Source: Escherichia coli
GTDB lineage: Bacteria; Pseudomonadota; Gammaproteobacteria; Enterobacterales; Enterobacteriaceae
Assembly (NCBI RefSeq): GCF_001677475.2
Contig: NZ_CP015229.1
Reading direction: 5' to 3' (one strand)
DNA: 64,000 bases
The position numbers and the translations under genes were made by a program. This document shows positions 62,849 to 63,754 of this stretch, in pieces; position 1 is the first letter of the stretch, and each line of letters opens with the position of its first letter. The notes under the pieces were generated by a model that saw only the letters and a program-made list of their open reading frames with translations, ran no database searches and had not been told where the DNA came from.

Positions 62849-62851
62849 TTG

Positions 62852-62875
62852 AAAGCCGGAGCATTCTCCGGCTTT
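62852..62875. terminator. hairpin between convergent nlpE and yaeF
   Basis: AAAGCCGGAG catt CTCCGGCTTT, 10-bp stem with A/T flanks. Confidence 0.75.
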
Positions 62876-62877
62876 CA

Positions 62878-63711
62878 TCACTGAGTCAGCCCAACAAAGC
62901 GACCCGCCTTGATATAAATCCCTGGCTTCAGGTGCCCAACATACTGTAACTGCGTTTCTGGCTTAAACGCAGAGACATCGCCAGTACGCATATGCATCAG
63001 ATCGGCAGGGCTAATCCAGCCCGATTGCGCCAGCGTAAGCGGATGCCCGGCTTTGGCAAATGCATCCGTGACAAATTCCGAACAAAACCACGACTTTTTG
63101 TCTCCTTCGCCCACACTGCTTAACTGCGCTTTCGCCAGGCCGCTGACGCACTGTTGGCGAAAATCCTCGGAGAACGGATTCAGTGAGCACATCTGGCGAG
63201 TCACCATAAATGGAATAAATTCGACAATGCCGCGATAGTTATAACCGCTATCTTTGATTTTATTGGCAAACGCGGTGATATCTGTGGCTTGTTGCGGGGT
63301 AAGATCCGGAACTCGTAAGACGAAAAGCTTATCACTATGCTTCATCGCTTTTTTAAGGGAAACAATCTGGACACCATCCCCTGTCGCTTCTGCAACGTTA
63401 TTATCACCCAGATAGATTGCAACGTGACTCACAGAGGAAGTGTTGAAGACGCGGATTCCAAATGAGGTTACCCCAAGGCTTGAGGAGAACAGCAAATCGC
63501 CGGGTTTGAGATCAGGTACCGTTATTTCTTTTATTGATTGTTCGGTGAAAGAGCTTTGATGCTGGAATTTGACAGCCCATGTTTTTGCCTCGACATCTAC
63601 CGCTGTGGCAGAGGAGTCTGGCTGGCTGATATCAACGGTACACGCCGAAAGTAAAAGAAAGCTGGGGAGAAGCAGGCGGTAGTACGCCTTTGGTTTATCC
63701 ATTTTATACAA
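62878..63711 (-). CDS. yaeF: NlpC/P60-family lipoprotein
   Basis: ORF with lipobox LLSAC near the N-terminus; start ambiguous between 63711 and 63702. Confidence 0.88.
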   Translation of the reverse strand: MYKMDKPKAYYRLLLPSFLLLSACTVDISQPDSSATAVDVEAKTWAVKFQHQSSFTEQSIKEITVPDLKPGDLLFSSSLGVTSFGIRVFNTSSVSHVAIYLGDNNVAEATGDGVQIVSLKKAMKHSDKLFVLRVPDLTPQQATDITAFANKIKDSGYNYRGIVEFIPFMVTRQMCSLNPFSEDFRQQCVSGLAKAQLSSVGEGDKKSWFCSEFVTDAFAKAGHPLTLAQSGWISPADLMHMRTGDVSAFKPETQLQYVGHLKPGIYIKAGRFVGLTQ

Positions 63712-63754
63712 TCCATGTAAAAAAGGGCCCTGAAATTCAGGACCCTTTCTGGCA

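Follow-up and report, generated by a model that had tools for sequence, protein, structure and literature searches.

We examined a 64,000-nucleotide (nt) stretch of Escherichia coli DNA (contig NZ_CP015229.1 of assembly GCF_001677475.2; hereafter, the window), near one end of which the minus-strand gene yaeF lies between the 3′ end of proS and the convergent gene nlpE (Table 1). By residue alignment and modelled fold, YaeF is a circularly permuted member of the NlpC/P60 superfamily (MEROPS C92), not a C40 peptidase, and it is predicted to be an outer-membrane lipoprotein. The gene name assigned by the original prediction was confirmed by a full-length match to the NCBIfam equivalog NF008552, ‘YaeF family permuted papain-like enzyme’ (528.7 bits vs. 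a cut-off of 279; model positions 1–274 of 274). RefSeq annotates a yaeF coding sequence (CDS) of the same 825-nt extent in other E. coli strains, and in the matching complete E. coli genomes the annotation is always ‘yaeF: YaeF family permuted papain-like enzyme’; yaeF is a known gene, conserved in Enterobacterales, that was already correctly annotated, and the window changes nothing in that annotation. Gene order around the locus (tilS-rof-yaeP-yaeQ-arfB-nlpE-yaeF-proS-trmO-rcsF) is that of K-12, the proS-yaeF-nlpE order is common to K-12, three other E. coli strains and Chania (Yersiniaceae), and five genes around yaeF show 96.3–98.6% nucleotide identity to K-12. The K-12 orthologue (b0193, ‘peptidase C92 family protein YaeF’, NF008552) also encodes 274 amino acids (aa) and also sits between proS and nlpE; it shares 96.7% nucleotide identity and 264/274 residues with the window copy, and the ten substitutions from window to K-12 (e.g. 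Y8C, L11F, N87S, D109A, T240I) leave the lipobox and the catalytic residues identical.

Table 1. Features of the yaeF locus (window coordinates; position 1 is the first letter of the window).
Feature	Coordinates	Strand	Details and basis
yaeF CDS	62878..63702	minus	274 aa plus TGA stop at 62878-62880, ATG at 63702; open reading frame list and sequence
Alternative in-frame TTG start	63709..63711	minus	would add M-Y-K; plus-strand caa; unlikely to be used
Predicted lipoprotein signal peptide, residues 1-21	63640..63702	minus	n-region K3/K5/R9, h-region LLLPSFLLL, lipobox Cys21, +2 Thr; rule-based check
Predicted catalytic His93 codon (S-H-V-A motif)	63424..63426	minus	aligns with BcPPNE His49
Glu105 codon, predicted third triad residue (A-E-A motif)	63388..63390	minus	aligns with BcPPNE Glu64; invariant
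Tyr154 codon, predicted NlpC/P60 signature tyrosine (oxyanion/P1 carbonyl contact)	63241..63243	minus	hhalign to YiiX Tyr115
Cys172...Cys185 pair in helical-hairpin insertion	63148..63189	minus	both invariant in orthologues, >=90% family-wide
Predicted nucleophile Cys207 codon (F-C-S-E-F motif)	63082..63084	minus	aligns with BcPPNE Cys154; N-terminus of helix 207-217 (AlphaFold2 model)
nlpE, convergent neighbour, envelope-stress sensor lipoprotein	62138..62848	plus	Pfam NlpE and NlpE_C; RefSeq annotation in E. coli
Hairpin, putative bidirectional terminator	62850..62877	both	12-bp stem, 4-nt loop; fold energies and z-scores
proS intrinsic terminator	63719..63750	minus	14-bp stem then U6; fold -26.8 kcal/mol, z -5.0
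proS 3′ end	from 63755	minus	flanks yaeF

The minus-strand open reading frame (ORF) extends from 62878 to 63711 and, in the ORF list, counts 277 aa from a TTG and 274 aa from the ATG. The start had accordingly been described as ambiguous between two Met codons; a second in-frame start does exist, but only the one at 63702 is an ATG, the codon at 63711 being a TTG that would be read as Met only if it served as the initiator. Translation from this TTG would give a 277-aa precursor (MYKMDKP...), and the codon is indeed in frame and the first start-type codon after the upstream stop; nevertheless, the only GGA, which resembles a Shine-Dalgarno sequence, directly abuts it on the 5′ side (0-nt spacing) and stands 9 nt upstream of the ATG, the TTG falls 8 nt past the U-tract of the proS terminator, the orthologues from other genera (in an alignment of 20 orthologues) all begin at the ATG position with an N-terminal extension in none, the NF008552 match spans 1–274, and the RefSeq start call is the ATG. 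We therefore consider use of the TTG very improbable, and these sequence features favour the ATG, so that the ambiguity is largely resolved. Because the signal peptide would be cleaved at Cys21, mature YaeF is in any case identical from either start.

The precursor begins MDKPKAYYRLLLPSFLLLSAC-TVD. The lipobox noted by the original prediction (LLSAC) was upheld by a rule-based check, with L18-S19-A20-C21 in the context LLLSAC fitting the pattern [LVI][ASTVI][GAS]C within the first ~35 residues, an n-region that carries three positive charges, a hydrophobic stretch after it, and a Cys21 that is invariant in the 20 orthologues (down to ~50% identity). Signal peptidase II cleaves lipoproteins before the lipobox Cys, and by the +2 rule a lipoprotein with no Asp at +2 is sorted to the outer membrane by Lol. 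The Asp-at-+2 inner-membrane retention signal is present neither in YaeF, which has Thr at this position (residue 22), nor in any of the 20 orthologues, in which the residue is T, S or A. Since the +2 residue is Thr and not Asp, YaeF is predicted from its sequence to reside in the outer membrane. Following these rules, a precursor translated from the ATG would be exported via a classical lipoprotein signal peptide, its Cys21 would be diacylglyceryl-modified, signal peptidase II cleavage and N-acylation would follow, and Lol would then sort the protein to the inner leaflet of the outer membrane.

We next consider the active site. The original prediction placed YaeF in the NlpC/P60 family and proposed that its catalytic residues be checked by alignment to C40 peptidases, with the absence of the catalytic Cys/His taken as refutation. 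The best Pfam match of YaeF is Peptidase_C92 (PF05708, ‘permuted papain-like amidase enzyme, YaeF/YiiX’; 47.9 bits vs. a gathering threshold of 27), although the alignment covers only profile positions 2–98 of 166 and the Cys half was recovered by alignment to the Bacillus cereus enzyme BcPPNE (PDB 3KW0). The NLPC_P60 profile (PF00877) also matches above its threshold (39.1 bits vs. 23, E 8e-10) with a score below that of PF05708, and it does so from model position 15 and over residues 29–121 only, which is the His-bearing half. By alignment, His93, Glu105 and Cys207 of YaeF correspond to His49, Glu64 and Cys154 of BcPPNE, and hhalign places Tyr154 on Tyr115 of E. coli YiiX (PDB 2IF6; probability 97%), the signature tyrosine that is equivalent to papain Gln19; the catalytic roles of the BcPPNE and YiiX residues are taken from PMC3142127. 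These four residues are invariant in the orthologues and invariant or at least 90% conserved in a 69-sequence family alignment that reaches 27% mean identity (His93 at least 90%, Cys207 invariant).

The order of these residues decides between the two classes. YaeF could have belonged to the canonical C40 NlpC/P60 peptidases, in which the catalytic Cys is N-terminal to the His, and the PF00877 match as well as weak sequence matches to LytE and MepS around the His strand speak for this; YaeF moreover has in common with the canonical C40 E. coli lipoproteins MepS (Spr) and NlpC a lipoprotein anchor, the papain-like superfamily and a conserved His-bearing β-sheet. However, the domain has no Cys N-terminal to His93 (none between residue 22 and His93), and the Cys residues of the mature protein beyond the anchor are C172, C185 and C207, an order that refutes the canonical arrangement and leaves it, in our judgement, next to impossible. 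The family assignment was thus right at the superfamily level and wrong as to class, His93 preceding Cys207 as in a permuted C92 enzyme. An alignment to C40 peptidases, read naively, does report the catalytic Cys as absent, yet His and Cys are both present in permuted order; because of the circular permutation the proposed test is mis-specified and returns a false negative for Cys. What changes in the understanding of the gene is that the start codon is in effect settled, that ‘NlpC/P60 (C40)’ is corrected to ‘permuted C92’, and that a Cys-then-His alignment test would wrongly reject an enzyme.

The predicted structure agrees with this assignment. A first AlphaFold2 run on the 20 orthologues was too poor (predicted local distance difference test, pLDDT, 59), and we used instead a run on the 69-sequence alignment (pLDDT 89.1, predicted template modelling score 0.87). 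The top Foldseek matches of this model were 3KW0 and 2IF6 (~220 columns), and the fold is closer to the solved permuted members than to canonical ones, with YiiX, BcPPNE, TseH, PLAAT4 and RID ranked far above murein peptidases. Residues 22 to ~58 have lower model confidence and vary among orthologues, as expected of a tether, and YaeF would consist of a flexible linker of ~35 residues that tethers a permuted papain-like domain in which His93, Glu105 and Tyr154 come before Cys207. Between Tyr154 and Cys207 the model places an insertion of ~40 residues within 157–206 (helices 156–173 and 179–193), so that the Tyr-Cys distance is 53 residues in YaeF vs. 13 in YiiX (Tyr115, Cys128). Both Cys172 and Cys185 lie in this insertion, their conservation extending to secreted multi-domain relatives, and they probably form a disulfide that staples the helical hairpin, which would fit a periplasmic enzyme. 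The first helix (156–173, GIVEFIPFMVTRQMCSL) is hydrophobic and conserved, an indirect hint only as to lipid binding.

It may be asked whether the gene is in use at all. One reading holds that yaeF is a decaying or silent gene, or encodes a pseudo-enzyme, kept only by its position between essential neighbours, and the upstream region lends it some weight: the strong proS terminator ends ~17 nt upstream of the yaeF ATG (an arrangement kept in K-12 and strain 2012C-4502), and no promoter of its own was detected, as a consensus scan was empty on the minus strand and a relaxed scan showed no sigma70-like or sigmaE-like site in the 52-nt proS-yaeF gap (63703–63754, minus strand), the sole candidate of the relaxed scan being a 9/12 match that falls within proS and precedes its terminator. 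A TATAAA abutting the ATG was rejected as a promoter because transcription from it would begin inside the ORF. Given that no promoter-like site lies between the proS terminator and the ATG, yaeF probably relies on read-through of this terminator and is probably expressed at a low level; its transcripts would then end at the hairpin held in common with nlpE. Purifying selection on yaeF is also weaker than on its neighbours (neighbour ratios of nonsynonymous to synonymous substitution rates, dN/dS, 0.00–0.26, mostly <0.15), with a yaeF ratio 2–4 times higher than that of the flanking genes, many database entries are shortened (some possibly at contig ends), and some E. coli carry an allele with a deletion and a frameshift that lacks Cys207. 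This allele (P0089; 20 E. coli contigs, up to 5.4 Mb) has an in-frame deletion of 33 residues (108–140) followed by a frameshift after ~residue 183 that removes Cys207, and appears to be a pseudogene in some E. coli lineages.

Against decay stands the selection on the gene itself, for which dN/dS is 0.08–0.19 and clearly purifying. The 825-nt ORF is intact in length in 5/5 E. coli sequences compared, and of the 5426 complete E. coli genomes 5423 have a match to the yaeF interval and 5419 retain 80% or more of the locus. The four catalytic residues, the lipobox Cys and the Cys pair are moreover invariant from Escherichia to Serratia and Chania at ~50% overall identity, and taking these observations together we regard decay as improbable. 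Diversifying selection, or an unusual yaeF allele in the window, was ruled out as well, as the synonymous rate (dS) is comparable to that of the neighbours and dN/dS is <0.2.

What YaeF acts on is less firmly indicated. We put at about an even chance the reading that YaeF is a periplasmic thiol hydrolase or acyltransferase, tethered to the outer membrane and directed at an acyl bond in a lipid or lipoprotein of the envelope, a reading that draws on analogy and on the modelled fold. The PLAAT/LRAT enzymes, relatives in another clade, work as phospholipases and acyltransferases. Tox-Act1 and TseH also have phospholipase activity (PMC12994826), lipoprotein N-acylation depends on LnsA (PMC7387801), and YiiX and BcPPNE have been proposed to be lipid-peptide amidases, the YiiX crystal holding a fatty acid against Tyr115 (by a hydrogen bond) and Cys128, where helices enclose a hydrophobic tunnel (PMC3142127). 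We favour acyl-bond chemistry because the permuted relatives for which ligand or activity data exist act on fatty-acyl bonds, and because of the structural ranking given above. By this mechanism the target would be a fatty-acyl amide or ester of an envelope lipid or lipoprotein, whose carbonyl Cys207 would attack to give an acyl-thioester; this intermediate would then be hydrolysed or transferred, as in YiiX, PLAAT/LRAT, TseH and Tox-Act1.

YaeF nonetheless differs from each of these enzymes. YiiX and BcPPNE are the solved YaeF/YiiX-family enzymes, with only 17–26% identity to YaeF, which alone has the lipobox, the ~35-residue tether and the 40-residue helical insertion with its Cys pair; BcPPNE is described as likely cytoplasmic (PMC3142127), whereas YaeF is a predicted envelope lipoprotein, and the fatty-acid and lysine ligands belong to the YiiX and BcPPNE structures and not to YaeF. 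The remaining lipid-acting enzymes (PLAAT/HRASLS-LRAT, V. cholerae TseH, Salmonella Tox-Act1, S. aureus LnsA and MARTX RID) belong to other clades, have no significant sequence similarity to YaeF, and are toxins, eukaryotic enzymes or Gram-positive lipoprotein acyltransferases, none of them an Enterobacterales outer-membrane lipoprotein.

Several points weigh against an acyl-bond substrate for YaeF or against parts of that reading. The substrate assignment leans on relatives at the 17–26% identity just given. The family builds its S1 pocket in the region of the YaeF insertion (PMC3142127), and as the YaeF-specific helical hairpin would be inserted where relatives form this pocket, the specificity of YaeF need not equal that of YiiX. 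The +2 rule is the one basis for the predicted outer-membrane location. The allele without Cys207 in at least one E. coli lineage argues that yaeF function is dispensable. We found no experiment on YaeF itself in the open-access literature naming it, where YaeF appears as a family name (PMC3142127, PMC7387801, PMC12994826); the earlier statement that its substrate is uncharacterised holds within the searchable literature. Finally, the domains that accompany YaeF-like domains in larger proteins (MurNAc-L-Ala amidases, lysozymes, C70 peptidases, a trypsin and a subtilase) point to the cell wall and not to lipid.

These larger proteins came from an exhaustive search of representatives, which returned 747 of them at E <= 1e-3. 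The closest non-orthologous relatives, at 35–42% identity over residues ~60–260, are domains of proteins of 400–1700 aa, and in 18 that were scanned the partner domains were Peptidase_C70 (9), Amidase_2 (3), Amidase_3 (2), Phage_lysozyme (2), trypsin (1) and subtilase (S8; 1). They have the His, Glu and Cys of YaeF, its Cys pair and its C-terminal YVGHLK motif; unlike YaeF they are without a lipobox, and in them a DIPLDPGxGGxSI motif, degenerate in YaeF, always precedes the domain. From their sequences, these multi-domain proteins look like uncharacterised multi-enzyme lytic proteins or toxins.

Their architecture is that of multi-enzyme cell-wall lysins in which each domain takes another murein bond, and it supports a murein-peptide substrate for YaeF too; held beneath the outer membrane as MepS and NlpC are, YaeF would then cleave the stem peptides of peptidoglycan as an endopeptidase or amidase. 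To this may be added that NLPC_P60 scores above its cut-off on the His half of YaeF, and that some Bacillus phage homologues are annotated ‘peptidoglycan peptidase’, although these are labels only. On the other side, all permuted members with biochemical or ligand data handle fatty-acyl bonds, the structural neighbours that outrank murein peptidases by a wide margin are permuted enzymes such as YiiX, the C92 protein YycO is given the activity ‘ND’ in a B. subtilis hydrolase census, and fusion to lytic domains fits equally well a lipase or esterase that acts on the membrane or on the lipoprotein-murein link. We treat a murein substrate as the main rival of acyl-bond chemistry, possible but less likely.

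More specific proposals are correspondingly bolder. As a periplasmic acyl-amidase or acyltransferase held at the outer membrane, YaeF might edit the fatty-acyl groups of lipoproteins or of phospholipids mislocalised to the outer membrane, or it might be a domesticated lytic domain directed at murein or Lpp; even taken together, these two we regard as a long shot. The YaeF clade could represent a lytic domain of the large multi-enzyme proteins of free-living bacteria that was made into a housekeeping lipoprotein in Enterobacterales. Acyl editing of this kind would correspond to the ‘lipid-peptide amidase’ activity put forward for the family by Xu et al. 2011 and never found in E. coli. Were it the true function, the conserved adjacency of yaeF to nlpE, a sensor of lipoprotein-trafficking stress, would reflect a functional link. 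The characterised relatives of YaeF in the permuted papain-like family that bears its name are lipid-modifying enzymes and toxins, and knowledge of the YaeF substrate would close a minor gap in our picture of the cell envelope, be it in lipoprotein or phospholipid remodelling or in murein turnover.

At its 3′ end, yaeF is convergent with nlpE across a hairpin, as the original prediction had it and as coordinates and folding bear out. nlpE ends at 62848 and the hairpin (TGAAAGCCGGAG-CATT-CTCCGGCTTTCA, loop CATT) occupies the whole 29-nt spacer up to the yaeF stop codon; folding gives a stem of 12 bp where 10 bp had been stated. The plus strand folds at -24.2 kcal/mol and the minus strand at -27.5 kcal/mol (z -5.0 and -7.8; 0/200 shuffles fold as well), so the description of a strong bidirectional hairpin stands insofar as the stem is more stable than shuffled sequence on both strands; the U-tracts, on the other hand, are weak. 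A terminator scan did not call the nlpE-yaeF hairpin because the full stem has no T-run after it, and if the stem is limited to its 7-bp GC core, the tails that follow read TTTCATCA (plus; T content 4/8) and TTTCAATT (minus; 5/8). On its sequence, the hairpin is not a textbook intrinsic terminator, and two-way termination is plausible.

The same spacer is polymorphic, consisting of the hairpin only in the window (29 nt, 62849–62877) vs. 199 nt in K-12 (L002 2981-3179), where it holds repeats of the repetitive extragenic palindromic/bacterial interspersed mosaic element (REP/BIME) type (GCCGGATAAGGCGTTTACGCCGCATCCGGC...). The short nlpE-yaeF junction occurs in 510/5426 complete E. coli genomes; the core of the hairpin, GCCGGAG/CTCCGGC, is similar to REP stem ends. 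An Rfam scan of 62000–64000 (E <= 1) returned no known RNA element; matches to the rimP leader (24 bits vs. a cut-off of 47) and to a flavivirus hairpin were dismissed as sub-threshold chance matches.

Two published observations touch the yaeF locus (PMC5320621, PMC11014345). In uropathogenic CFT073, an NsrR peak from chromatin immunoprecipitation sequencing (ChIP-seq) sits where c0233 begins, next to the 3′ end of yaeF, and a Tn5 insertion inside yaeF (K-12 position 216233) came from a suppressor screen on the lethality of a restriction-modification controller protein. Neither the NsrR ChIP-seq paper nor the Tn5 paper pursues yaeF further.

The multi-domain proteins with a YaeF-like domain include the metagenomic proteins P0135, P0143, P0165, P0173, P0174, P0179, P0184, P0186, P0187, P0195 and P0214, and the loci L004 and L005 belong to the same set. 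The neighbourhoods of P0179, which is on a 4.6-kb contig, and of P0135 were uninformative, with no Pfam or PHROG match among the eight genes upstream of P0135. Phage homologues of YaeF are rare (13 records). One of them, gp26 of the P2-like Ralstonia phage RsoM1USA (L010 4986-5450), lies in a moron slot flanked by the genes for tail-fibre assembly and for the tail sheath. The PHROG family phrog_1128 goes under the name ‘enoyl-CoA hydratase/carnithine racemase-like’, but its match is to the YaeF-like permuted papain domain (E 4e-23 with YaeF); the name seems to be a mistaken annotation that was passed on, and we did not use it as functional evidence.

Finally, a comparison of window positions 61160–64000 (vs. 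L001, L002, L007 and L008) bears on the origin of the DNA itself. The best match to the yaeF interval among the 5426 complete E. coli genomes reaches only 97.6% identity; the lineage behind the window, within E. coli or closely related to it, therefore has no near-identical counterpart at this locus in the complete-genome set.

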